Shown here: in pieces, positions 976 through 20,251 of the stretch
How the letters are laid out: each line of letters starts with the position of its first letter
How positions within the stretch are numbered: position 1 is the first letter of the stretch
Assembly (NCBI RefSeq): GCF_000002075.1
Contig: NW_004797445.1
Location: forward strand, 446,507 to 510,506
Reading direction: 5' to 3'
Source of the DNA: Aplysia californica
Taxonomy: Eukaryota
DNA: 64,000 nt
The notes under the pieces: model-generated
Databases searched by the model: none
Told to the model about the DNA's origin: nothing
Seen by the model: only the letters and a program-made list of their open reading frames with translations
Position numbers and translations under genes: made by a program

Positions 976-1390
976 AGGACAATAGCACAATCACTCTAGT
1001 GGTCATTTGTCATGCAATTTGATTATATTTAAGAGTATGAGGGTTACGTATGCCTGCGTGTGCAATAGATCAGTCTGGGGAATCGTGAGACTTGAAGCAA
1101 GATATTATATTCAATGAAAGGACTAATTAAGTACTGGTATCATAGTTTGTCAACTCGAGACAGCATTCTTCAACTACTGGTACTTGTTTCCTTCTTTAGA
1201 AGGCATGCCTTTACAAATTACATAGTAGTAGGCCTGTTTTTTTTAAATTCTATTATGTTTCTATTGAGCCCCCTTGATCAGGTACGTGCATGTTATAAAA
1301 GAATATTTTTAGATTTTTATAATTTTATACAACGGAGTCCGCTGAAGCATGTACCGGTATAAAAGTCTATGTTTGTATAATGTATTATTA

Positions 1391-1530
1391 CAGTCAAACT
1401 CCACAATGATAAGAGAGATGCATAAATGTACACCGTGAAGTACGCTATGGTAACTCGTTATTGCCGGATTGCCGTGTCTCGGTTATTGCATAAAAAAGGG
1501 AGACAACAGCCAAGTGCCTTGTATTGAAGG
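1391..1530 (-). mobile_element. Degenerate 3' terminal region of the Tigger/pogo element ancestral to the 1685-2611 ORF
   Basis: TA|cagtcaaactcc at 1389-1402 plus a subterminal ctcgttattgccgga motif resemble a decayed Tigger-type end about 290 bp downstream of the ORF stop. No clean matching 5' TIR found. Confidence 0.4.
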
Positions 1531-1684
1531 CTTTAAAAACGTTTACCTCCCTTTGATTTTAAGACCGTCATTCGGACTCTGTTCCCTCCCTGTGCCTAAA
1601 TTGATCTGTGGTGGGGAGGGGGAGGCCGTAAAGGGGTCGGGGAAGAACGTGAACAGTGAGGGTGGCGGTAGAGGGTTCCTGGAC

Positions 1685-2611
1685 TCAATCATCTTTGTTT
1701 TTGAAGGCGAAGAACGACATAATTGTCGGTTGACTTTTCCTATTTTTGGCGTCTGTAGCGATGGTTTGGATGCATGTTTCGTACGTTTCAAGGCCTTTTA
1801 TGAGAGAAGCACAGTCTTCCTGTTGCAGTAGAAAGTGACGTAGCGTTGCAACGGCTTCCAAGGCACTTCTGCTTGTGACGGGTTGAATAATGGGGTCGTT
1901 CTCTTCGTTTTGATGTTCATGTAATCGATCAGATCCACTGGTCGCAACGAAAAGGGTTCTTCTATCATTTGGTTCTTCGTACTCAGTTGAGCAACTTTCC
2001 CACTCCCTTGTCAGCGTGCGAGAAGGCTGGCATGTGTACAGATCCTGATCAGTTGAAATTCTGTCGACGTTGGGGATGTCACAGGGTTGGTTGTCTTCTT
2101 CGTGGGGAGCTTTCTTCACACACATCTCCTTTCGGTTCTTGGTTGTTTCGGTAATGTAACTGATGGATGCAGACTCACCACTGACACTTGTACCGCTACT
2201 TTTAAAAAGGATTCCGTGACGAGACTTGAACCTATTTAACCATCCCGTGCTTGCAGAGAAATTGGATGTTCCGAGGCCTTTTGCTATCACCTTGGCTTTC
2301 TCTATCAATACTGGTCCTGAGATGGGCTCTTCTTGACTCCTTGCTTGCTTGAACCATTTCAACAAAGCTCTGTCCACGTCGACGAAGTCAGAGGTCCTCA
2401 ACTTTTTGCGGTTACCGTCAAAATCGCCTTGTTCATAAGCCTTCATAATCTTCTCTCTGTTGTTCAAAATCGTGTACAAAGTACTGGATTGTAGATCAAA
2501 ATCTCGACATAATTGAGCATTTGTGCTATTGCTCCGATCGGCAGCCTCGATAATGGCCACTTTCGTTTCAAGTGCAATGCGTTTTCTTCTCTGCGTAGAT
2601 CTAGTTGCCAT
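1685..2611 (-). CDS. Tigger/pogo transposase-derived (TIGD/CENP-B-like) DNA-binding protein lacking the DDE domain, 308 aa
   Basis: Uninterrupted ORF with strong start context (caaaATGG). N-terminal CENP-B_N/psq-type HTH (RKRIALETKVAIIEA...STLYTILNNREKI), then HTH_Tnp_Tc5 (DVDRALLKWFKQAR...PISGPVLIEKAK...FSASTGWLNRFKSRHGI...SGES). It then passes directly to the pogo C-terminal segment (ISTDQDLYTC; PVTSRSALEAVATLRHFL) and a terminal QPTIMSFF motif. Confidence 0.85.
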   Translation of the reverse strand: MATRSTQRRKRIALETKVAIIEAADRSNSTNAQLCRDFDLQSSTLYTILNNREKIMKAYEQGDFDGNRKKLRTSDFVDVDRALLKWFKQARSQEEPISGPVLIEKAKVIAKGLGTSNFSASTGWLNRFKSRHGILFKSSGTSVSGESASISYITETTKNRKEMCVKKAPHEEDNQPCDIPNVDRISTDQDLYTCQPSRTLTREWESCSTEYEEPNDRRTLFVATSGSDRLHEHQNEENDPIIQPVTSRSALEAVATLRHFLLQQEDCASLIKGLETYETCIQTIATDAKNRKSQPTIMSFFAFKNKDD

Positions 2612-3133
2612 TTTGAATTCTCGATGAGAACGACGATTTGGAGCTGGGAGATATTATCGTGTCTAGATCTATCAGACGAAGAGTAGGCTAGAATGAATTC
2701 GTCAGACCTTGGCCAGGGCTATGACTTTAGTCACTTTACTGATACTATCGAGACAATAGAGAGTAGAGCGATCTATGAGACCGTGCCACACATTAGACGC
2801 GAATTGTACTAACAGTAACACACTACAACAGTACACACCAGCCGCTTTAACCCTTTCTTCGAAAACCTGGGTCTACTCAAGTCTACTGTGCTACGAAACT
2901 ACGAACGAACTTGGCTACACACACTAGCCCCCTCATTCCAACCTCAATGCCCGCCCGCGTGACGTGTGCTGCGGCGCGGCTTGTGTTCCCCCGCTGGTTG
3001 ACGATTGATGACATTCTACTAGATCTAGGCCTAGTGGGGCAGACTGAATGGGCGCGCGCAAACCTGGGCCTCTCTCAACTGTGGGCTCAGAATGTGATAG
3101 TCTGCTCTTGCGTGCGCGGGTTACATAGAGCGA

Positions 3134-3136
<3 letters not shown>

Positions 3137-3179
<43 letters not shown>

Positions 3180-3197: not shown

Positions 3198-3311
3198 TGG
3201 GTGGGTGAGGGGGGGGGGGGTAGTTTCTTTGTTTGGGAAAGAGAGAGGGGAAGGGAGAGAGAGAATGCCTGCGGGTGAGAGAGAGTCGAGTGTGTGTGGT
3301 ATTAACCACTA

Positions 3312-4208
3312 CAGTGGGCCCCCACAATTGCAGTCTCGGTTATAACAGGATTCCGGATATAGAGCTAGCGGGCTTATTATTTATATATATATATATATAC
3401 AAAACCCCGAGTCTGATATTTTATTATATAATATACATGTATGTAAATACTATTTTATAGCAGGCATTCGGATAAACATGTTCAGCTAAGAAAGCGGTCG
3501 AATTCTCGACTAAATCGTAAAACAAAAGGACAAGCATGTGCGTTCCCGGAAGGGATATATAATATATGGGAAAAGCTGGATGCACTTCGGTGTTGATGCA
3601 TTCCTCCAGTCAATGACAATGACCAGGGCCGCGTTAACTAAGGGCGGGGCCCTAGGCTGTCCATGAGCCGCGGGGCCGGGGCCCCTCGATGACGTTGATG
3701 CTGCTACTACCGCATTGTAGCCCCATACTGATGGAAAGCTATACTGTAAAACGTGATTAGATGTAGGCCTACCGGTATCCACCAATAATGTGGATTAAGA
3801 CGACGACAAGCACATTTATCTATTTCTGTTACAAAGTATGAGGCAGCCGAAACCTATCAACAGCAGCCCCAACAACAGCAACAGCGGTAGCATCAACATC
3901 CTTCTCATTAACATCAATAACAACAACAACTGTAAAAACAACAAACAACAACAACAATTCAACAAGAGGACAATTTTTTTTGTTGAAAAACATTTTTTAA
4001 ACGTCGTGTTTGCAAGCGCGGGGCCCCCTGAGGCGCGGGGCCCTAGGCTACAGCCTAAACAGCCAACGCGGCCCTGACAATGACCCGGCGTGGCCTTGAT
4101 CTGGCACTATAGACATCATAATCGTCAGCATGATATTGCCTCTGGATCGGTGGCTCGTCGTGTGGTGGCGAGTGGCGAGACAAAATTGATTGAATGGGGA
4201 GTGCACTG
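3312..4208. mobile_element. Degenerate Tigger-like MITE interrupted by a hAT MITE
   Basis: Left end TA|cagtgggccccc...ggttataacaggattccggatat resembles the left end of the 7769 element. The possible right end gaatggggagtgcactg at 4208 is only a loose inverted match. Confidence 0.4.
3624..4076. mobile_element. hAT-type MITE
   Basis: Perfect 12-bp TIR cagggccgcgtt/aacgcggccctg, exact 8-bp TSD acaatgac (3616-3623 and 4077-4084), subterminal gggccc repeats. Confidence 0.9.
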
Positions 4209-7617: not shown

Positions 7618-8757
7618 CAGTGATGCCACTCAATTTTTTTGAAAATAGATGAAAATCCATGCGTCACGGCTGAGATTAGCGCAAATCCTCCGGTTTTTTT
7701 TTCTCCCCGTTATTTGGATTTATGGCGAAGTCTTTGTTTTTGCGTTATTTGAACATTTGGCGCAAGTACAGTGGAAACCATATATAACAGGCCCGGTAAT
7801 AACAGGGATCCGGTTATAGCAGGGATTTTAAAAATCCCCGTTTTTTCCTACTCTTTGTCTCTTTTAAAAGTTATCGGCAATAACGGCCTCATCGGAGCCC
7901 AACCGGTTATAGCAGGAACAAAGGCTCGTTAACAATGTGTAAAAAGAGAGAGAGAGAGAGAGNNNNNNNNNNNNNNNNNNNNNNNNNNNNNNNNNNNNNN
8001 NNNNNNNNNNNNNNNNNNNNNNNNNNNNNNNNNNNNNNNNNNNNNNNNNNNNNNNNNNNNNNNNNNNNNNNNNNNNNNNNNNNNNNNNNNNNNNNNNNNN
8101 NNNNNAGAGAGGGCTGCGGTGTGCTGTAGACCTCGATCTAGCCCGAAACCTAGCAACACGCACGCGTAATGTCACCAACGATGTCAAGCGGAAGAGAAAG
8201 TGACTTTCAATTGACAAAAAATAAGAAATAATCCAGGCAGTTGACAAAAAGCAAGCTCCACTGGCAGAGATTTGTCGTCAGTTCGACATTCCACAAGGGT
8301 CAATTCACATCATTATAAAGGATAGAGAGAAGATAGTGGCAGCATACTCCAATTGAAAGTTTGCTCTGGATCGAAAGAAGATGAGACTACCCGATGAAGA
8401 TGCTGTGGACCAATCTCTTCTGATGTGGTTTAAAGAGGCAAGGAGAAAGTTGGTGCCAAAACCCCAGTTTGTGGGTACTTGTGGCAAGGGAAACTACCCC
8501 TGAATAATATGTGCAGCTGGATTAGTCCACAAATGCTTACTTTCCTTGCATTTCTGATGTAACAGGGATCGGATATAACAGGACATTTTCTCTACTCCCA
8601 CCATCCCTGTTATATCAGGTTTCCACTGTAGTTGTGTGTGTGTGTGTGTGTGTTTTTTTTTCTTTTTTTCCAACTAGGCCTATAGATTCTATCTTGATCT
8701 CAATAACGGAATAGCGGATCAGAATATCAGAAAAAAAGCGGAAAAGTGGCATCCCTG
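7618..8757. mobile_element. hAT-like MITE nested in SINE B
   Basis: TIR cagtgatgccact/agtggcatccctg (12 of 13 match). Flanks acgttg/acattg suggest a 6-bp TSD with one mismatch. Confidence 0.7.
7769..8628 (+). mobile_element. Non-autonomous Tigger/pogo element with a decayed transposase N-terminus
   Basis: TA TSD, TIR cagtggaaaccatatataacagg/cctgttatatcaggtttccactg. About 8182-8448 translates to VKRKRK*LSIDKK*EIIQAVDKKQAPLAEICRQFDIPQGSIHIIIKDREKIVAAYSN*KFALDRKKMRLPDEDAVDQSLLMWFKEARRK (CENP-B-type HTH with stops). Confidence 0.9.
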
Positions 8758-9176: not shown

Positions 9177-12100
9177 TCAGCCATGGCCAGAACTCTTTTT
9201 ATGTTTCACATGAGCACGTCTTAGCTGTCGAAACAGAGCAGACTGCTTTCTTTTCTTTCTAGCATTGAGCATAGCAGACCGGCTTTCATAATTTGTCTCA
9301 CTACTATCTGAAGTCACAGAAGATTGACTTCCATCACCATTGTCGCCACTGTCATCGTTACCATCATTGTCATTTTTACTATAACCACCGTCATCATCTT
9401 TATTTTTATCCTTTACATCATCGTCATCACCACCCTTCTCCTTTGTATCATCCTCACTATCATCATCACTCCTAAGTATGGAACAGTTCTTGCTTGTGTT
9501 GTGTGTCTTTGAGCACACTGGGTCATCATCACTTTCTTCAGAGGGCTGAGTTTCCCCCTGAGAGAATGGTGCATCAATGTTCCTGACTGAAGATTCCAGT
9601 TTCTCCTCAGTCACTGATGAACCAGCTACACAGGCTTTTTCCCTTTCTTCTTTTTCTTCTTCACTAGAGCTTGACTGCAACTTGATCCTTTTGTGATAAT
9701 TCTTAATCCGATGTTTTCTGGTCTGAAAGAGCACAAAATACAAAGTAATTAAAAAAACAATGACAACATTGCAACAATATTATTTTTTTCCCCATAAAAG
9801 TAAAAAAAAAAGGGTGACTTTATTTAGGCCACATATATACGGCCTAAATAAGCTCAAGCCCCCTTCCTAACCTTATTTAGGCCACATACGGGGTGTATCG
9901 AGGCAGATTCGCCCTGCCGCGTGCACGTTCACTAAACTACCTACTATTACGACAGTCGGAGGAGGGCCCTCCGGTCCGGGCACTTTGTGTACACGCTTTT
10001 ATGCAACAAATTTAACCCAAAAGTCCATTCGGAGAATTTGACCTGTTCACTTACACAAAGTATGCCAAAATGGTAGCCTAGCTTTTGCTCCTATATATGA
10101 AAGAAAAACTATGGCCCTCATTTCAAACCATTGGGATTGAGCAAAATTTTACGCACTGTGCGTTGCTCTTACTGTTTTCATTATTATGATTTATTTAAAG
10201 GTATTCACTTGAGACAAAATTGAACTGAATTACGAGAAAGGTGCAACGTTGTGAAAGCGGGACAAACTCAATTCCTGTGAAAAGGGTAGTTTGAGCTTTG
10301 GCCTAAATAAGTCTACCTGGGGGTCTTCACAGTATATAGGCCTAGCATCTCTGTTTGTCGCTAATCGCGGCCGCGATTTTTGCATTTTCCAACAAAAAAC
10401 AAAACCAAAAAACCCCCCAAAAAACCCAACCCCCCCCCTCCCACCCAACAACAACAAAACACCGCCCGGGAATAAGAAAAGCGGGGACAAAAACCTGAGA
10501 AATATACAAAGAAAAAAAGGAACCAAACCTCTTTACTTTTAGAAAAAAAGTTTGTTTTCACTCCTGCTTCACTTCGTCTCTTTCAGTCACTTGTTGACAT
10601 CATGTTGATTTGTTATTTTCATGTGAAGAGTATACATTACATACTATTAATATTGCTGCTTCTTTTATTTTTCCCTCTTTGTCATGTTTTAATTTGTTGG
10701 TGTGTTAATTTTTTTGTTATTGTTCTGATGTGTTGGTTTTTTATTTTTTATTTCTGTGTTCATATAACGAAACGTAATTTCAGTTAAGTTGTTCCTACCT
10801 TTTTTTTTATACATAATGTGTTATGTTAGAGCCAGTTTCCACCAAAACCAAATACTGACACTGGCACGACCCTTGAGTGTGATTCCATAATTTACATGTA
10901 ATATCCTGTACTTTTTCTTGAATTACACACGCTTAGGGTTAAAACGGCCAATCTTCGGATAGGTCGACATACGCCCTCCTTTTCTAGTTATGATTTCTTT
11001 CTCTTGTGAAACCTTTATTTTTCATATTTTTACACTCTGTGTGGCTACAAATGATATTCACGATGCTTAAAACTAGCACAAGAGGTTACCTCTATCAACA
11101 TATTGCTATACGTCGTCACAGAGAGTTGAAAACCTGAAAATTAATGGCAACTTTTGGCATTTTTGTGGCAACTTTTGAACAAAAAATTGGCAACAAACGC
11201 AGATGCTAGATAGGCAGTATGTGGCCTAAATAAGGTTACCTGGGGGCCTGCATGGTATATAGGCCAGCCATATGTGGCTTAAATAAGCACCACCCCCCCC
11301 CCAATAACAACAACAAAAAATGAACTGAAATACTGTAGTGAAATTATATAAAAAATAAAAATAGAAGAAAAAACAAAACATAAGGGGGAAATGGAAAGTG
11401 GCCATTTGTACAGGTGGCCTTCATGGCAGGTTTGAGTGTACAGTGCCAGTCTTTATGATTGAAATCAGGTTTGTCAAGTTGAGCCCATTCTTAATCTTAA
11501 CTCTAACATTTTAACATTTTGGAAACAAAAATAGTCCATTTCAAAGTGACAACTTTCTGCATGCTATTACAAAGTTGGAAATGTACAAAAAAAGTCTTCA
11601 TAAAATCTTTTTTCTTTTTGTCTTTGAGATTGTGAACAATGCCCATTTGGTCCTAGATCTTTTATCATAAGAAAAATTATGAAGCAGCATGATTTGAATC
11701 ACATTTTAGGAGATTTATCAACACTCATGACTTGAACAACAGTTTGAACACTAAGCCTCTACTCTATGCCGTGCATAGTTAAAAATACAAAATCTAGGAG
11801 AAGTTTGATGACCAATTACTTACTACATAATGAGTACTGTATGTTATTCAGCATGAAAGTATGGCACCAATGTGAAAATCACTTGTTCAAGTTCAATGGA
11901 ATTAGGTGAAATAGTGTGTACATTCAATCTATTAAAACTGAATAAAAGAAGTTGTACCATGATGTAAAGGTGAAATGTTGTAAGACAAGACTTACAGTAC
12001 ATAAAAGAATGAAAAACAGTATCATAAAATAAGGTTACACTCACTATGTTTCATTTTGACTTTCTCAATTTTTAAAACTCTGATTGTCCATATTTTATGC

Positions 12101-15100
12101 CCCTATGACACAATTTAGATCATTTAGGAGGCGGACTGCTTTAACCCTGCCATTCAGGGCCAGCCTGGGCAGAGAACATTAAAACGTCCCAGTAAAAAGA
12201 TGGAGCTACATGATACAAAGTTCTTCCTGCATGGGAATCCAACTCATATATTCCGTTTGCAGCAGCAAAGTGCCTAACTGCTATATCACAGCTACCCATT
12301 CGTACAATGTTTTCCTGCTTATATAAATATATTAATTATAAAGAAAGCGATCTAGCATTCACATGGCAAACAAATTTTCAGGTCCACAAGTTTTTCTCAT
12401 TTAACATACATACTCATCATGTATTCTTTTTTCAAAAGACATAGGGCTTACATAATAACAAAACTTGTACATTATCATAATGAAAACATTTCCGTGTCCG
12501 GCTGATTTTCCTATCCACACAATAGACTGTAAAATGAACCACCTTTTCTTGCTTGGAATCATCAGAGTTTGAGTTATCTGAGGCCAAAGAGACATCATCA
12601 CTTGTATCCTCATAGTCATCAAAGTTATAGTTGTTGTACCTGAGGTATTGAAAAATGAGCAAATGAAAGGAATGATTTCAAATCATTACACTTGTCAAAC
12701 CTCGCTACACCGCTTACCTTGGGTTGGGCATGAAGTTGGTGGTACAGCGGGGCTAGCAGTACAACAGGATAGCACTGGTTGTCATCTTGATCAGTGGTAG
12801 ACTGGTAGAGACTAGAGAAACCAATGTGGCCAGTCTTGACTCTTCCAGATCTGTCTTTATACAAAATGCGATTGCCATGCGCAGGGGAAAAGCGAATAGC
12901 AACCAATTACATTATGTACAGCTCCATTTTCTGCAGGATCAGAGGCTCAGCTATGCGCCAAGGACCTTGTAGACGTACAGTTTTTTTAAAATAACAAGAT
13001 ACTCATCAGTTGTTGTGCCGCCTCAAACCTATCAAGTCGATTTGAGCGCGAGTCCTCACGAAACAAAAGCCTCATNNNNNNNNNNNNNNNNNNNNNNNNN
13101 NNNNNNNNNNNNNNNNNNNNNNNNNNNNNNNNNNNNNNNNNNNNNNNNNNNNNNNNNNNNNNNNNNNNNNNNNNNNNNNNNNNNNNNNNNNNNNNNNNNN
13201 NNNNNNNNNNNNNNNNNNNNNNNNNNNNNNNNNNNNNNNNNNNNNNNNNNNNNNNNNNNNNNNNNNNNNNNNNNNNNNNNNNNNNNNNNNNNNNNNNNNN
13301 NNNNNNNNNNNNNNNNNNNNNNNNNNNNNNNNNNNNNNNNNNNNNNNNNNNNNNNNNNNNNNNNNNNNNNNNNNNNNNNNNNNNNNNNNNNNNNNNNNNN
13401 NNNNNNNNNNNNNNNNNNNNNNNNNNNNNNNNNNNNNNNNNNNNNNNNNNNNNNNNNNNNNNNNNNNNNNNNNNNNNNNNNNNNNNNNNNNNNNNNNNNN
13501 NNNNNNNNNNNNNNNNNNNNNNNNNNNNNNNNNNNNNNNNNNNNNNNNNNNNNNNNNNNNNNNNNNNNNNNNNNNNNNNNNNNNNNNNNNNNNNNNNNNN
13601 NNNNNNNNNNNNNNNNNNNNNNNNNNNNNNNNNNNNNNNNNNNNNNNNNNNNNNNNNNNNNNNNNNNNNNNNNNNNNNNNNNNNNNNNNNNNNNNNNNNN
13701 NNNNNNNNNNNNNNNNNNNNNNNNNNNNNNNNNNNNNNNNNNNNNNNNNNNNNNNNNNNNNNNNNNNNNNNNNNNNNNNNNNNNNNNNNNNNNNNNNNNN
13801 NNNNNNNNNNNNNNNNNNNNNNNNNNNNNNNNNNNNNNNNNNNNNNNNNNNNNNNNNNNNNNNNNNNNNNNNNNNNNNNNNNNNNNNNNNNNNNNNNNNN
13901 NNNNNNNNNNNNGGGGGGGGGTCATTGATCTCTTAGAATTTGACTTATCCATGGAAGCGAACTGAGCTGCATTGAAAAAAGTTGTAAAACTAAGTACTGC
14001 TGACAACTCTAAAATGGTGATCTAAGTGCATTGTTGCACAACCGCATCGTTTAAAAATAAAGCATAGGCCTACTTAGTCTCTTGTTCACGCATTCATCAA
14101 AGATTACCTACCAAAAAATTAAATCTTACTTATCAATAGACCTACATTAGAACAGAAGACAACATCAGAAAGTTTTACGGCCAAAGTGTAATCAATGAGG
14201 TGGGAATTACTCTTTAACTTCAAAATTACTCACAATTTCGTAAAATTATTCACAGTTTTCTTTGGAGTAATACGTTTCAGACTTTTATTGGGTGAAGCTT
14301 CATCCGGAATTTGGTTCCAAACAGAGTCTCGTGTTGGAAGAACAAAACCTGGTTTGTGTTGTTTCCGCAAAATCCGAAACGACTGCCTCTTTGCATTTGA
14401 TGGAGTGACCTGTCAGAAAAAAATTAATAAACATTACAAAATTATTATATTATTTAATCAAACTCAAACAGCAAAAATGACTCCTAAAAACTTTCAATTT
14501 CAACATCACTTTCTAAGGCGAACATTATAACATATTAATAATAAAAATATTAAAAAATATTTTTTATAATGTGGACTGAAGCCACCAGAAACCAAACTGA
14601 ACAAAACGGAACCGATCCTCAAATGGGCATCATCTATTAGTATTAACTTTCACTTTCGCCTAACCATGTAAAATTTTTTTTAGCACACTGAGAAATTTAC
14701 ATTGCGTGCTCATGAAACTTCTACAGGCCAGCGACCAAACAAAAATATTTAAAAAAAATCTTGATCCAGTAATAAACAAGTTTTTCCATTTGGAGCCTTA
14801 TACAGTGGATACCTGATATAACAGGAATGGTGGGACCAGAGAAAAAATCCTGAAAATTTATATATATCAGATCCCTGTTAAATAAGAAATACAAGGGAAG
14901 TAAGCATTTGTGGACTAATCCAGCTGTGTTTATTCATGGGTAGTTTCCCTTGCCACAAGCACCCCGTGCATGACACATTAGGCATGCGTGTAGCTAGGCT
15001 CAGGGCTAGATCGAAGTCTGCAGCCCTCTCTCGCTTCACCCGCAGTGTGAGCTTGCAGTGGGGTGGCTTGCGTGGGCTTCCTCCATCACTGCAATACTCT

Positions 15101-18100
15101 CTCTCTCTTACTTTTTCCACTTTGTTATCGAGCCTTTGTCCCTGCTATAACCGATTGGGCTCGGATGAGGCGCCGGCCCTGTTATTGCCGATAACTTTTA
15201 ATAGAGATAAAGAGAAAGAAAAAACAGGGATTTAACTGTCATTACTGGACCCCGGTTACCACCATGTCTTGGTTTCCACAGTAATATTAAAACGGGCACC
15301 TTGTCTCAAAATCTACATACACGGTAAACCGGAATGAAAATAAATCAATATTTTGTCCTTTGCTGTCATTTGCTGAAAAAAAAAGAAAGTCATACAAGCG
15401 TCTTGTCGGGCTCGCCATTGTGACCGGTCAGTGAACCTGTGCGTGTGCATCACATTGTGAGTACCGGTTGGGGGTCACCAAAGTTCATTCAAAGCCTGTG
15501 CGCTGCGAAGTATAGGGCTCCGGAATAGGGGGATTATTTATTTTTTTTAAAAGTACAGTCGGGGGAGGGGTGGGGATGAAGGAAACACCGGATGACAAAA
15601 ACTGAACTTGGAGTTCTGAACTGCCCCGTTACCGTGTACGTGACACTGAGACTACGGGCCCGATTGCCAGTTACCGTGTACATTATTGAGGCTACATGCC
15701 CGGTTTCCGTGTACATGACACTGAGACTACGTGCCCGGTTGCCGGTTACTCATACTGTGTACGTAGACACTGAGGCTAGGTGCCTGGTTACCGTGTACGT
15801 AGACAATCCGATATTAAAAACCACTCTTTGGATGCATGCATACACAGGATCACTAAAATTTAAAATGACTTTCAGTACTTACACTTACAGTAGCCTTGTT
15901 TACATAAATTGCTCATTTTGAGACAGCTACATCACCCTGCCCCCACATTTCAGTGTGTAAGCTAGTCGGCTTCATCCCCCCGCTGTCTAGATGTCTCCGC
16001 ATGAGTTTAGAAAATTATTCATCCCTTCTCTTGAATTGTGTTTCTTAATGTATGTGCGGTAAATCCTTTATCATCTTTTTGATCTGCTAAACACTGTGCA
16101 GTCACTTGGCGCAATAATGCGCCGGTGAAAATTGTCCGTTCTGGGCACCTGGCGCAATTACGGCGCCAGTCCCGAGAAGTCTGTTGCAGTCGCTCTCCTG
16201 GCCGGGTGACCAGATGGGGTATTTTGTACAGCTGGCTGTGAAACTCTGCAAAGTGTTTTTTAAGGCTTACATCAAAGAAAACATGTTGGAACCATAGTTG
16301 CAAGTGACTTTTATTCCAGATCTATTTTTATGAATGGGCTTTTTTTAGATTCTGTTGGCCATCCAACTTTTAGACCGTATGCAAAGATCTGAGAAGACTA
16401 TACAGATTGATTTCATATTACTACGGAAAAAGCACCGATAAGTTAAAGCAAAGATAGTACAAAATGGTCCACTCAGCCATAAAAATGTCCGCCGAAAGTC
16501 CGCTCTTTGCTTCAGATGGCGCTGCAGTCTGTTTTGAAGCTCTCTTTCGTTTCTCCAGAAGAAGAATAGGAATAGCACTTCCTTGCGAGCGCAGATCGAC
16601 TGCTGTTCATCAGCTGTTCAGGTTCGTTCAGAGCGGAGTTTTAGTTGTTTTTTATTTCAATGACCTCTCGTTTCTCATTCTTAAGTTAAATTAAACGAAG
16701 AAAACAGTCGCCCCTTCTTCCAAAACAGGTTTTTTGTCAGCGTAATCATTTTTAAAAAGCGTTCTTCCGAAATTTGAATTCTTATTTTTATTAAAAAACT
16801 TGTTAGTTTCACTTTGATTTTTTAAAACACAAGTAGGGTAACTCTGTTCGCAAAGGGTGCGCATTTGTGAAGAGGGTGCCACCGAATTTTGAGGACACTT
16901 TTTTAATTGGCTCAAAGAGAGAAGTACGTGGACCCTCTTGTTATGTAGACTCTTTGGTTAAAGTTATAAAGTGTAGATCTAGATATCTAGATCTAGGCTA
17001 ATAAAGACAAGCAAGTGGCTATTCTCCGGCGTCACGCCGGTCAATAGATCGGAAGCTATTCTCCGGCGTCACGTCGCCGGTCTATTACTTAAATGAATTA
17101 CAATGTATTTGTCGTGAGAAAAAATTCCCATAACTTCACCACTTCGATTGATACAGATGATACATTTTCAGACACAAACTCCCTCAATTCCTCCAATTTA
17201 GAATTAAGAAGAAGTTACATTTTCACTGTTTACAAAAACGGAGATACGACAAGAAAGCACTGAAGTCGCGGAATATCAGTTAAATTTATCGAAAATTATA
17301 ACAACAAGAGATACGTTAAACAGCAAGCTATACTATGACTAGACAAGATTTTAGACACAAAATAAATTTTGTTCGTTTAAAGAAACAGAATCGTTATTTT
17401 AATGAATAAAGTTACGTTTTTAGACAATTATCATAGATAAAACATAATGAAAGGTAGGTTTACTAGGCTTTAGAGATCTAATTATTGTAGATCTCAAAAT
17501 CCGCGCCGACAAATACATGGTAATTCATAAGTAATAGACCGGCGGCGTGACACCGGAGAATAGCTTCTGATCTATTGACCGGCGCGACGCCGATGAATAG
17601 CCACTTGCTAAAGACAAAGTCGCAAATTTATGAGCGGCTATAAAGGGCAAGCCGTCTTTGAGTCCGAATAACATTTTTTCATATTCGGACTCGAGTCCGA
17701 ATAAAAAAATTCATATTCGGACTCGAGTCCGAATATGAAAAAATGTTATTCGGACTCGGGTCCGGAAAAAAGGAAGTGTATTCGTTCTATAGATCTATCG
17801 TTCAGTGCTTCCTATTTTCCGCAATTTTTTAGTTTCCCCCACACCTTTTCTGCCGATCCGATGCCCGGCGCCTCATTGATACACCCCCCAACCCCCCATG
17901 TTTCCCACTTTCTTTGTTGTAGAAAAAGGTAAAATTGAAGATTAGCAGACCACCTTGCACCTGCATATTATGAGCTGTGTAAAAAAATAAAAAGACCGAT
18001 TCATTCAAATACACAAGCCTGTGTCATCTTGATTGTTTACCAAGAAAAAGTTGAGCTGCTGTGTAGAGCTGAGCATAATATAATGACAACTTTTGATTCC

Positions 18101-19667
18101 ATAGACCAGCGCACAATTCATTACATAGATATCTACGTCAAGACTAGCTTATTATTGTATTGTAATAAAATAATGATTAGTTGCCGGGGGAAAAAAGACT
18201 GACGCGTATGCGACGTTCAACGCTCGGACCGATAGTGCCCCCCCCACCCCCCTCCCCGACACGCACACAGCCACACGTGTGCAGGCCGCCCATCTGACCG
18301 CGACACACGCTAACGAGCCATCTTTAATTGCTTCTGAAATATTTATTAGAAGCGCTATAACTTTTCAGGCCGGCCTCAAATTCATCATAAGATAAAAACT
18401 CGGCTCCTGCACAAAACGCCATTTTTGCCCGAAGTGATCCCGGTCTCTACCCAGCCTGAGGCGAGTCACGAGTGAGGCAGGACAGGAAAGCCGGAGTCAC
18501 CAGTCACAGGAAGTCGGAAGTGCAGTGGCGGTGGGTAGTGAAGGGCTCACGGGCTTGAGCCCCTCCCCCCTCCCCAACCACCACCCCCAACTCTGTCCCA
18601 AAGTAAATGAAAGTTTCTCCATAATGAAATAAACAGTTGAAACCGTTATGACCGCACGCAATGAACACAGAGTGATCAACCTGGCGGCTTGCTCGCTTAT
18701 CCAATCACTGTTGTCCCCGCTTACAACTATACTAACCAAGCAGCCAATCAAATGTCTTTAGTGGCTCAGCAAAGATGAGCCCTTTTCCCACAGTCCGTCC
18801 TTAATGAAACTCTTCTTGTAAAAAGGTAGAAGACAGGGAAAAAATAACACTGTACCGAGGGCTCACGCTCTCCTAGCCCTGACAATGGCCTCAATGGGGT
18901 GAAAGTTTACGACACACTTTCCCGTACTGACACGGATACCTATGCGCTCATTGGTTCTTTGTTGGGTGCGTTCAACTTTCTTGACTACACGGCCTAATCC
19001 AGCTCATAGAAGTATTATTACTATTATGTTTGAAGTGCTGTGTGTGCATGTTTGTGTTTGTGCTGCTGAGATTTAACAGTTATAACTTTTTCATTACACG
19101 AAAACTAATTAGAGGAAATTTGGAGGTGAATCGGTTTTGTCTCCACCATCAACAAGAATTTAACTAAGAACAAAGAGATTGAAAACAAAAGCAACTCTTC
19201 TCGTTTGAATGGTTCTCTAACTGCCGTGGCTCACCCTGAGTATAGAAAAATCATCACTGTTTAATTCTTATTGCTTGCTATTTGGTGGTAAAAAACTGAA
19301 AGCAACCTAAGCCCCACCCAAATTTTGGTCCACCCACCGCCACTGCGGAAGTGATGTCATGCTGGACAAGAATCAGAGTCCGAATAACATTTTTTCATGA
19401 TATTCGGACTCGAGTCCGAATAGTCACTTCGAAAGGGCAATGGCAACGGCACTGGGCATTGTTGAAGCATTCCATCAACTGCGCAAAGAGTAAATTTCTT
19501 GTCTCTTAATCTTTAAGTGTTACCTCGACGTCATCGTTATTCCGCGACTGATGACGGCGGCTGCTGGGAAGCCTACTGTTGTTGTTATTGTTGTCCTCAG
19601 AATCAGAGCCTGACGACGATGATATCGATCTAGCGTTCTTCCTTCTGCGTTTGGTACTTGCGCTCAT
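9177..19667 (-). CDS. Uncharacterised multi-exon gene for a low-complexity Ser/Asp-rich, Lys/Arg-rich probable nuclear protein
   Basis: GT-AG exons: 19667-19524 (MSASTKRRRKNARS...NDDVE, phase 0), 14409-14234 (VTPSNAKRQSF...TPKKTVNNFTK), probable microexon 14141-14130, unresolved exon(s) around the 13076-13912 gap and one ending at donor 12718, 12639-12543 (YNNYNFDDYEDTSDD...KQEK) and terminal exon 9722-9177 (TRKHRIKN...ARKKRKQSALFRQLRR...HG*). The central phases cannot be fully closed because of the gap. Confidence 0.7.
9812..11295. mobile_element. DNA element with long imperfect TIRs built from ttatttaggcc/ggcctaaataa dyads (MULE-like architecture)
   Basis: Left gggtgactttatttaggccacata, right tatgtggcttaaataagcaccaccc, with repeated ggcctaaataag motifs at both ends. 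TSD not resolvable. Confidence 0.65.
10343..11208. mobile_element. TAG-ended hAT-like MITE nested in the 9812-11295 element
   Basis: TIR tagcatctctgtttgtcgctaat/attggcaacaaacgcagatgcta; 8-bp flanks tataggcc/gataggca (6 of 8 match). Confidence 0.7.
13076..13912. other. Assembly gap inside the minus-strand gene (other gaps: 7963-8105, 26135-26234)
   Basis: Run of N. Confidence 1.
14803..15281 (-). mobile_element. Tigger/pogo MITE, shorter deletion derivative of the 7769-8628 family
   Basis: TA TSD, ends cagtggatacctgatataacagg and ggtttccacag. Reverse-complement homology to both ends of 7769-8628, but the transposase remnant is absent. Confidence 0.85.
15622..15805. repeat. Degenerate minisatellite (about 36-42 bp unit, gttaccgtgtacgtgacactgagactacg...)
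   Basis: About five tandem copies of ccgtgtac...cactgag...gccc visible. Confidence 0.8.
16449..16956. mobile_element. P-superfamily-like MITE, copy 1
   Basis: CAAAGA...TCTTTG termini, perfect 7-bp TSD gttaaag (16442-16448, 16957-16963), highly similar direct copy at 21317-21812. Confidence 0.85.
17011..17608. mobile_element. MULE-like MITE
   Basis: About 80-bp TIR starting gcaagtggctattc with an internal gctattctccggcgtcac repeat; perfect 9-bp TSD taaagacaa (17002-17010, 17609-17617). Confidence 0.9.
17651..19431 (-). mobile_element. MULE-like non-autonomous element with palindromic subterminal arrays
   Basis: Perfect 9-bp direct repeat aaagggcaa (17642-17650, 19432-19440). gagtccgaata-N-tattcggactc dyads at both ends; termini gccgtc... 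and ...aatagtcacttcg. Confidence 0.75.
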
Positions 19668-20251
19668 ATTAAAACTTCAATGTTTCAAAAATATTGAATA
19701 ACCAATGCACGACATGAAAATATTCCAATTCCTATGCTTTCGGGGAAACAACAATGTACGAAGTATTGGAGTTAATGTTGACTTTCGTTTTGATTATCGC
19801 TTCTCCTGCACTTGGCTCTTGTGCACTGTCCTCGCAGTTGGGTTTGGCGTTTATTGTTGTATCACTGTATGCCTAAATGCACACATATTTCTATTACAAT
19901 GTTTTTGAAGATAACTTCACTAGCCTATATATTTACAGAGAAAATTTTGTAAATTAATATTAATTTATTTGAATATTTCCCCCTTCTCTTTTATGCTTTC
20001 TTTTGTTCTAAATAGTAAATTCTACAAGCAGTCATTATTTGGACACTGTTTGTTGATGATTATTAGTCTAAAGCGCTGGTCAAATATCTGGCTTTGTTTT
20101 GCTTCTATCCTACAATCACTTCCGCTTTCACTTTCGTGAGGGCTGAAATTCAGGTCAGGCTCAACTCGATCGACACGTGCTAGCAAGCTAAGTCGTGTTT
20201 TGAGGACCCAACTATCTTTTACTGTGATTGATGGTGAATTGACTCATTGAC
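19668..20251. promoter_or_regulatory. Bidirectional promoter/5'UTR region shared by POLR1B and the minus-strand gene
   Basis: Lies between two divergent first coding exons; contains ETS-type cacttccg (20117-20124) and canonical E-box cacgtg (20174-20179). Confidence 0.6.

Follow-up and report, generated by a model that had tools for sequence, protein, structure and literature searches.

Is a pogo-type reading frame that has lost the catalytic core of its transposase a gene kept by the host, a repressor of its former relatives, or a relic that happens to have stayed open? This question is raised by the open reading frame (ORF) at positions 1685-2611 of a 64,000-nucleotide stretch of Aplysia californica DNA, hereafter the window, for which the original prediction proposed either a domesticated gene or a transposition repressor. 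The first half of this proposal is supported by the single copy, transcription and region-specific constraint described below, so that of the four observations announced as refuting it three were looked for and not made; the second half is less well supported, none of the candidates scored in the host genome assembly (G000) being an intact copy of the parent family. With a probability of roughly 0.7, we read the gene, Ac_Cenpb3, as a domesticated, pogoR-derived host DNA-binding dimer that is likely tethered to PCNA; it is real, is probably functional, has already been catalogued and belongs to a known kind. Direct observation covers its domain anatomy, its deletion, its single copy, its sense transcription and its uneven conservation. 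Domestication was assessed along the six criteria applied in the accessible text of PMC4231638, namely sequence or domain similarity to pogo transposases, absence of a TIR pair in the flanks, expression, intact coding under constraint, an orthologue in synteny in related species, and a loss-of-function phenotype. The features concerned are the following, in window coordinates:

2612-3178, minus strand: single-copy 5' leader, transcribed; GC-rich from 2900 to 3130; start provisional
1685-2611, minus strand: Ac_Cenpb3 ORF, intronless, 308 aa (P0001 = XP_005098271, LOC101845922); spanned by a single X17 contig (1345-3124) without gap or joint
2441-2581, minus strand: CENP-B_N helix-turn-helix (HTH), aa 11-57; Pfam E 2.1e-6, pLDDT >90
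2204-2383, minus strand: HTH_Tnp_Tc5 helix-turn-helix, aa 77-136; Pfam E 1.5e-19
2087-2203, minus strand: linker, aa 137-175, carrying three in-frame insertions; pLDDT <50 across most of it
1922-2086, minus strand: N-terminal portion of the catalytic domain, eroded, aa 176-230, predicted disordered, with three in-frame indels
2063-2065, minus strand: D183, the position of the first catalytic Asp by alignment to full-length transposases
1907-1921, minus strand: in-frame deletion junction, about 228 codons gone, second and third catalytic Asp absent
1733-1873, minus strand: two-helix hairpin at the C-terminus, aa 247-293, homodimer interface by prediction; pLDDT >90
1709-1732, minus strand: consensus PIP box, aa 294-301, putative PCNA binding by motif
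1064-1684, minus strand: single-copy 3' region, transcribed; sites of internal oligo-dT priming at 1187 and 1743
1389-1416, plus strand: possible 3' TIR remnant (TA-CAGT), 296 nt beyond the stop, not above chance
7769-8628, plus strand: neighbouring non-autonomous pogo element with a TA-flanked TIR pair and an HTH remnant with three stops, which served as neutral control

Much of the predicted anatomy was borne out. The stop-free frame of 927 nt is present, its length including the stop codon, and it is read from 2611 to 1685 on the minus strand, the plus strand being closed across the interval; the start context is indeed strong, with A at -3 and G at +4 around the ATG, and three upstream ATGs in the 5' leader open short ORFs of 43, 17 and 6 codons. 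Both CENP-B-type HTHs were recovered as Pfam matches (CENP-B_N plus HTH_Tnp_Tc5), DDE_1 did not appear up to an E-value of 1, and aa 294-301 read Q-x-x-I-x-x-F-F, the canonical PIP box that had been announced, which fits the pattern Qxx[ILM]xxF[FY] near the C-terminus taken as the sign of a PIP partner. An AlphaFold2 model fed with a 71-sequence alignment places both HTHs and the hairpin at 247-293 above a pLDDT of 90 and most of 142-235 below 50, and the sole significant Foldseek match of the model is the CENP-B(1-129)-DNA structure 1hlv (E 2.8e-8). The recognition helices of HTH_Tnp_Tc5 are nearly identical to those of the closest transposases.

One part of the prediction was wrong, namely that only the pogo C-terminal segment follows the residues SGES. 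Residues 8-230 align unbroken, as one piece, with full-length transposases (57% identity over 225 columns), and residues 137-230 are an eroded linker together with the beginning of the catalytic domain, the motif DQDLYTC being the eroded GLFYxC motif of the catalytic N-terminus with a 3-residue insertion. The breakpoint lies between L230 and about residue 232-235, past which the protein resumes in the acidic stretch that precedes the C-terminal helices. The DDE_1 domain with DDD triad of an autonomous transposase is lacking: the second and third Asp are deleted and the motif around D183 is eroded. A search for the missing DDE core in the 64-kb window and in the preceding 20 kb did not find it, and contigs of three runs (X15, X17 and X20) cross the junction without gaps, so the deletion is neither an intron nor an assembly error. 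Compensated frameshifts within the remnant were also considered and rejected, off-frame tblastn giving nothing better than E 0.27.

In the host genome the ORF, its 3' flank and its 5' leader have one DNA match each; such match counts are lower bounds, and the same search does recover the neighbouring pogo family. With this single match and no TIR pair in its flanks, the locus is set apart from a young deletion family, for which many near-identical TIR-flanked copies would be expected. The TIRs had been described as eroded, and what was found is one weak TA-CAGT end at 1389-1391, its partner end being absent. Under a matrix derived from four TIR families this site ranks 68 of 125,622 positions, 0.57 TA-CAGT sites are expected by chance per 900 nt, no alignment of the 1391 end scored above shuffles, and no TIR partner was found in the flanks, in scans that do recover the pairs at 7769-8628 and at G000:C91. 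The TA-CAGT at 3310 was rejected as partner, as it has the same orientation and, with a score of 46 against a shuffle maximum of 22, corresponds to the left end of the young family next to it.

The transposase remnant at 8182-8448, which had been presented as a relative, does contain three stops (at about 8189-8452), but it is only 39% identical to Ac_Cenpb3 and belongs to a separate, young, TIR-flanked non-autonomous family. This family displays a mean pairwise distance of 6.5% among 11 copies, with 589 first-look candidates, and in the HTH region it is about 90% identical to G000:C7, not to Ac_Cenpb3. What its members retain of a transposase is codons 1-96 and the 3' end, and this transposase has its sole intact frame at G000:C7:3332936-3334630 (L003); further members lie at 14803-15281 and 3310-3362 of the window, and the family constitutes a natural, TA-flanked test set for binding by the C7 protein. 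A protein-level scan of the host genome, with 128 of 639 candidates scored, yielded nine open frames, 515-581 aa long and 32-44% identical, as well as more than 100 short HTH remnants, which like the one at 8189-8452 belong to the young family. A search started from a full-length relative scored 84 of 722 candidates in this gapped assembly, and none of the 84 was an intact member of the parent family; the nearest copy, at G000:C238, is broken, and no parent TIR was recovered there.

Other resident elements are informative in their own right. At G000:C91 (L038:2501-5495) lies a pogo element of 2,995 nt with TIRs 88% alike and an open frame of 565 aa, in which the residue following the second catalytic Asp is K rather than N; an intact pogo ORF in a single exon is therefore not always a domesticated one in this genome. 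Several full-length paralogues (L004, L006, L008, L009 and L010, corresponding to Ac_Cenpb1, 2, 4, 6 and 8) have open frames but altered catalytic-motif residues, and most are without TIR pairs. The paralogues in the assembly are identical to Aplysia californica RefSeq proteins, and RefSeq names them TIGD4.

These data bear on the possibility that the host keeps Ac_Cenpb3 as a transposition repressor, which would occupy pogo ends or form dead mixed dimers with active transposases. KP-type internally deleted P elements act as repressors, and Ac_Cenpb3 has retained exactly the DNA-binding and pairing modules in a genome where pogo was recently mobile, as judged from the young family and the intact C7 frame. 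We nevertheless regard this account as unlikely, for the 84 scored candidates hold no intact copy of its own family, the nearest being the broken one at G000:C238; moreover, the transposase of the young family is only 44% identical to it and agrees with the Ac_Cenpb3 clade at 12 of 52 C-terminal residues, values that make shared sites or mixed dimers unlikely.

A domesticated gene should be expressed, and the locus is transcribed. Contigs of X15, X17 and X20, runs whose type is unrecorded, cover the ORF in sense orientation and unspliced, and the X17 contig reaches the TG repeat at 3124. The loose ends of the X15 and X20 contigs at 1187 and 1743 match an oligo-dT cDNA primer whose sequence appears in the accessible text of PMC2689275, in the orientation expected for minus-strand RNA, and are internal priming sites rather than transcript ends; expression is thus documented by the cDNA-primed X15 and X20 contigs together with the X17 bridge. 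In the poly(A) raw-read runs X22-X24, 8, 9 and 10 reads mapped over 3.3 kb and almost none of them on the ORF, counts that come without a positive control and from a mapping tool that dropped some reads. According to the accessible part of its record, the catalogued Ac_Cenpb3 cDNA starts inside the TG repeat near 3178, and its length is estimated at about 3.1 kb. Transcription may proceed by read-through from an upstream gene.

The closest relatives of Ac_Cenpb3 are full-length transposases in clusters of 6-38 members, which it joins with a support of 97. At the protein level no orthologue was found among 19 matches and then among the 150 best of 6,422 matches, residues 140-308 used as query gave no match, and no alignable DNA relative was found; runs labelled as organisms B and C were rejected as sources of orthologues, their sequences being over 99% identical. 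For future comparisons of synteny, markers are available in an RNA polymerase second-largest subunit gene, whose exons (Rpb2 domains 6 and 7) lie at about 28000-52600 on the plus strand of the window, and in an alpha/beta-hydrolase gene on the minus strand before it (L032:1790-5624). The surroundings also include a probable multi-exon gene at 9177-19670, upstream of Ac_Cenpb3 and on the same minus strand, which encodes an acidic low-complexity protein and whose last exon has no Pfam match, and short open frames at 230-490 on the minus strand that resemble a non-LTR retrotransposon endonuclease fragment.

As no orthologue was found, the decaying catalytic remnant was taken as an internal control. 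The identity of Ac_Cenpb3 to its five nearest full-length transposases is 65-71% in the HTHs and 60-62% in the C-terminus vs 41-47% in the remnant, a segment that is 79-89% identical among the relatives P0181, P0189 and P0003 (Fisher p = 0.0002 and 0.002). In pogo transposases the catalytic N-terminus is normally better conserved than the HTHs; the ratio of remnant to HTH conservation is 0.81 in Ac_Cenpb3, the lowest of 31, and 1.05-1.73 in the other 30, which include one duplicate. When a fixed 25-sequence tree was used, the terminal branch of Ac_Cenpb3, scaled to the remaining tree, was 0.025 for the HTHs, 0.013 for the C-terminus and 0.157 for the remnant, and all 100 of 100 bootstraps put the remnant above the other two. 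The loss seen in the remnant is reproduced by neutral change of about 0.3 substitutions per site; under such a simulation every region drops to about 53%, and the ORF stayed stop-free in 1 of 4,000 trials. The eight internal indels all keep the frame, six of them within linker and remnant, compared with 9 of 30 indels in multiples of three among 11 young neutral copies; a protein alignment reveals in-frame indels only, and no off-frame match was seen. Four variants were recorded in five contig runs, two silent and two amino-acid-changing, the latter both in the remnant; two of the four are known from one contig each, one of these two at a depth of 3.

Frame, HTHs and C-terminus have therefore been under past constraint, as region rates, simulation and in-frame indels concur, and the selective preservation postulated for this ORF is visible against the gene's own decaying remnant. 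This constraint is historical and could have lapsed recently. On another view, a once-selected gene, or an ordinary deletion derivative, is now drifting and transcribed only incidentally. The lack of an orthologue in protein-level searches and the near-zero reads in all three poly(A) runs would agree with it, pogo elements often carry internal deletions (35 of 44 copies in flies, in the accessible text of PMC4231638), and the ORF was chosen for being open. Drift, however, cannot spare the HTHs and the C-terminus and yet erode the segment that is normally best conserved, and of 10 further copies inspected in another deleted family, comparably diverged, 9 contain stops or frameshifts or match as fragments only. 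We consider this explanation quite improbable.

The possible dimerisation put forward in the original prediction was addressed by modelling aa 236-304 as a homodimer, with three runs and three controls. The hairpin dimer reached an ipSAE of 0.46 in the three runs vs 0.00 in the best control, with at least 96% of contacts shared between runs and a partner pLDDT of at least 67. In calibration on microbial proteins, 21 of 30 homodimers of solved structure and none of 23 monomers attained the mark applied to such models; on eukaryotic ones, 17 of 29 homodimers (7 of 16 in animals) and none of 30 monomers attained it, and among eukaryotic pairs without an older solved relative only 1 of 7 did, so that the model may be remembering the solved dimer of CENP-B. 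Interface residues are identical to P0179 at 19 of 24 positions, vs 11 of 21 elsewhere, and to the more distant P0003 at 9 of 24, vs 9 of 21. Pfam gave no CENP-B_dimeris match in Ac_Cenpb3, and fold searches with the 69-residue hairpin returned generic helical hairpins only (best E 1.4, best Z 5.9), the CENP-B dimer domain not being among the matches. That Ac_Cenpb3 is a functional CENP-B analogue on a centromeric or other satellite repeat is highly improbable: the HTH fold, the predicted two-helix dimer and the pogoR ancestry common to CENPB and TIGD4 would suit it, but besides the missing Pfam match CENP-B keeps its DDE domain (both points of comparison from the accessible text of PMC7386202) and nothing ties Ac_Cenpb3 to centromeres.

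The strict PIP pattern occurs 8 times in the 127,996 six-frame positions of the window. The box is ancestral, being present under a relaxed pattern in 36 of 64 full-length relatives, and by our own arithmetic its four anchor residues would survive equal drift about 8% of the time (0.53^4). A PIP box is known in pogo, its function being described as unclear in the accessible text of PMC5371812, and from this precedent and the consensus motif PCNA binding by Ac_Cenpb3 appears likely.

For Ac_Cenpb3 as a domesticated, PCNA-tethered dimer, the following sequence of events can be proposed. A pogoR-type transposase gene lost its catalytic core in frame and has probably been retained by host selection. 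Since the recognition helices differ very little from those of the parent clade, the two HTHs may still read the end sequence of the parent transposon or sites derived from it; the 90-residue remnant would now be a disordered spacer, the C-terminal hairpin dimer could bridge two sites, and the PIP box might load the protein onto replicating or repairing DNA. Its role would then resemble that of Drosophila Cag, as a factor of chromatin or transcription. The decay of the remnant shows which modules the host has kept, namely the DNA-binding part, the hairpin at the C-terminus and, perhaps, the PIP box, and a protein devoid of catalysis whose PIP box is intact offers a clean reagent for the host role of PCNA binding apart from transposition.

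A second DDE-less pogo ORF, of independent origin, is present at G000:C284:330963-331850 (L022; RefSeq LOC118477905). It encodes 295 aa, 25% identical to Ac_Cenpb3, in the same layout of two HTHs, C-terminal helix and PIP box, and it has 12 dispersed DNA relatives at 67-79% identity (62-79 bits and above). These relatives have no TIRs and share little outside the coding region, and are possibly retrocopies; with the sole other long open copy, G000:C256:288790-289544 (L046), dN/dS is 0.32 overall and 0.24 in the HTHs. Among 220 screened proteins, six others have a C-terminal PIP and no catalytic core, among them a tick family of multiple copies and gene models possibly owed to annotation error. 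An HTH plus C-terminal helix without catalytic core was also observed in P0147, P0145, P0129, P0140 and P0103, from a spider, the multi-copy tick family, Elysia marginata and others. As a tentative and rather doubtful generalisation, proteins of HTH-spacer-dimer-PIP layout could form a recurrent, unnamed class of PCNA-tethered factors, each carved from pogo by one in-frame deletion, twice independently here (Ac_Cenpb3 and LOC118477905) and again in the spider and others, that would guard or mark transposon-derived sites at replication forks.

As regards known systems, Ac_Cenpb3 is one of 14 Aplysia CENPB-family transposon-derived transcription factors in Supplementary Table 1 of Mukherjee and Moroz (2023; PMC10027918), where the accessible entry is the identical 308-aa protein (XP_005098271, LOC101845922). 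According to the accessible text, that study tested selection family-wide, in contrast to the region-by-region analysis of one gene presented here. The terms 'PCNA' and 'deletion' are absent from its main text and five supplements as accessible, as is 'inverted repeat' from the main text; a domain figure in it may already show the missing DDE. The searched literature, which comprised few subscription journals and was in part accessible, yielded no description of the deletion, the PIP box or the region-specific constraint of this gene, and its searched main texts no mention of LOC101845922.

Non-autonomous pogo derivatives and KP-type repressors resemble Ac_Cenpb3 in that the catalytic region is internally deleted and the DNA-binding part is left; unlike it, they are multi-copy and carry both TIRs, as does the element at 7769-8628. 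TIGD4, TIGD3, TIGD6 and CENPB share its double HTH and pogoR ancestry, whereas they keep the DDE domain and are not orthologous to it; in the accessible texts of PMC7386202 and PMC7325037, all twelve vertebrate pogo-derived genes retain this domain. A precedent in design is found in fruit flies, from which this route of domestication is already known. As given in the accessible text of PMC4231638, Drosophila cag (CG12346) is a pogo-derived host gene that lost its DDE domain by internal deletion and has no TIRs, its product being reported to self-dimerise and to bind PCNA; cag and CG4570 share with Ac_Cenpb3 the CENP-B_N as well as the HTH_Tnp_Tc5 domain, pogo descent, the deleted DDE and the absence of TIRs. 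Cag has 225 aa, no recognisable PIP sequence and orthologues with a dN/dS of 0.08, whereas Ac_Cenpb3 retains a consensus PIP box and the 90-residue remnant, and no orthologue of it was found. Because Ac_Cenpb3 groups with intact transposases in trees that do not include cag, we infer that the two genes originated independently. With the gene catalogued and the route known, the latter also named as 'DNA-binding module' in the accessible text of PMC13548663, the locus would not greatly surprise a specialist; what is added to these systems is evidence from a single gene on which transposase modules were kept.
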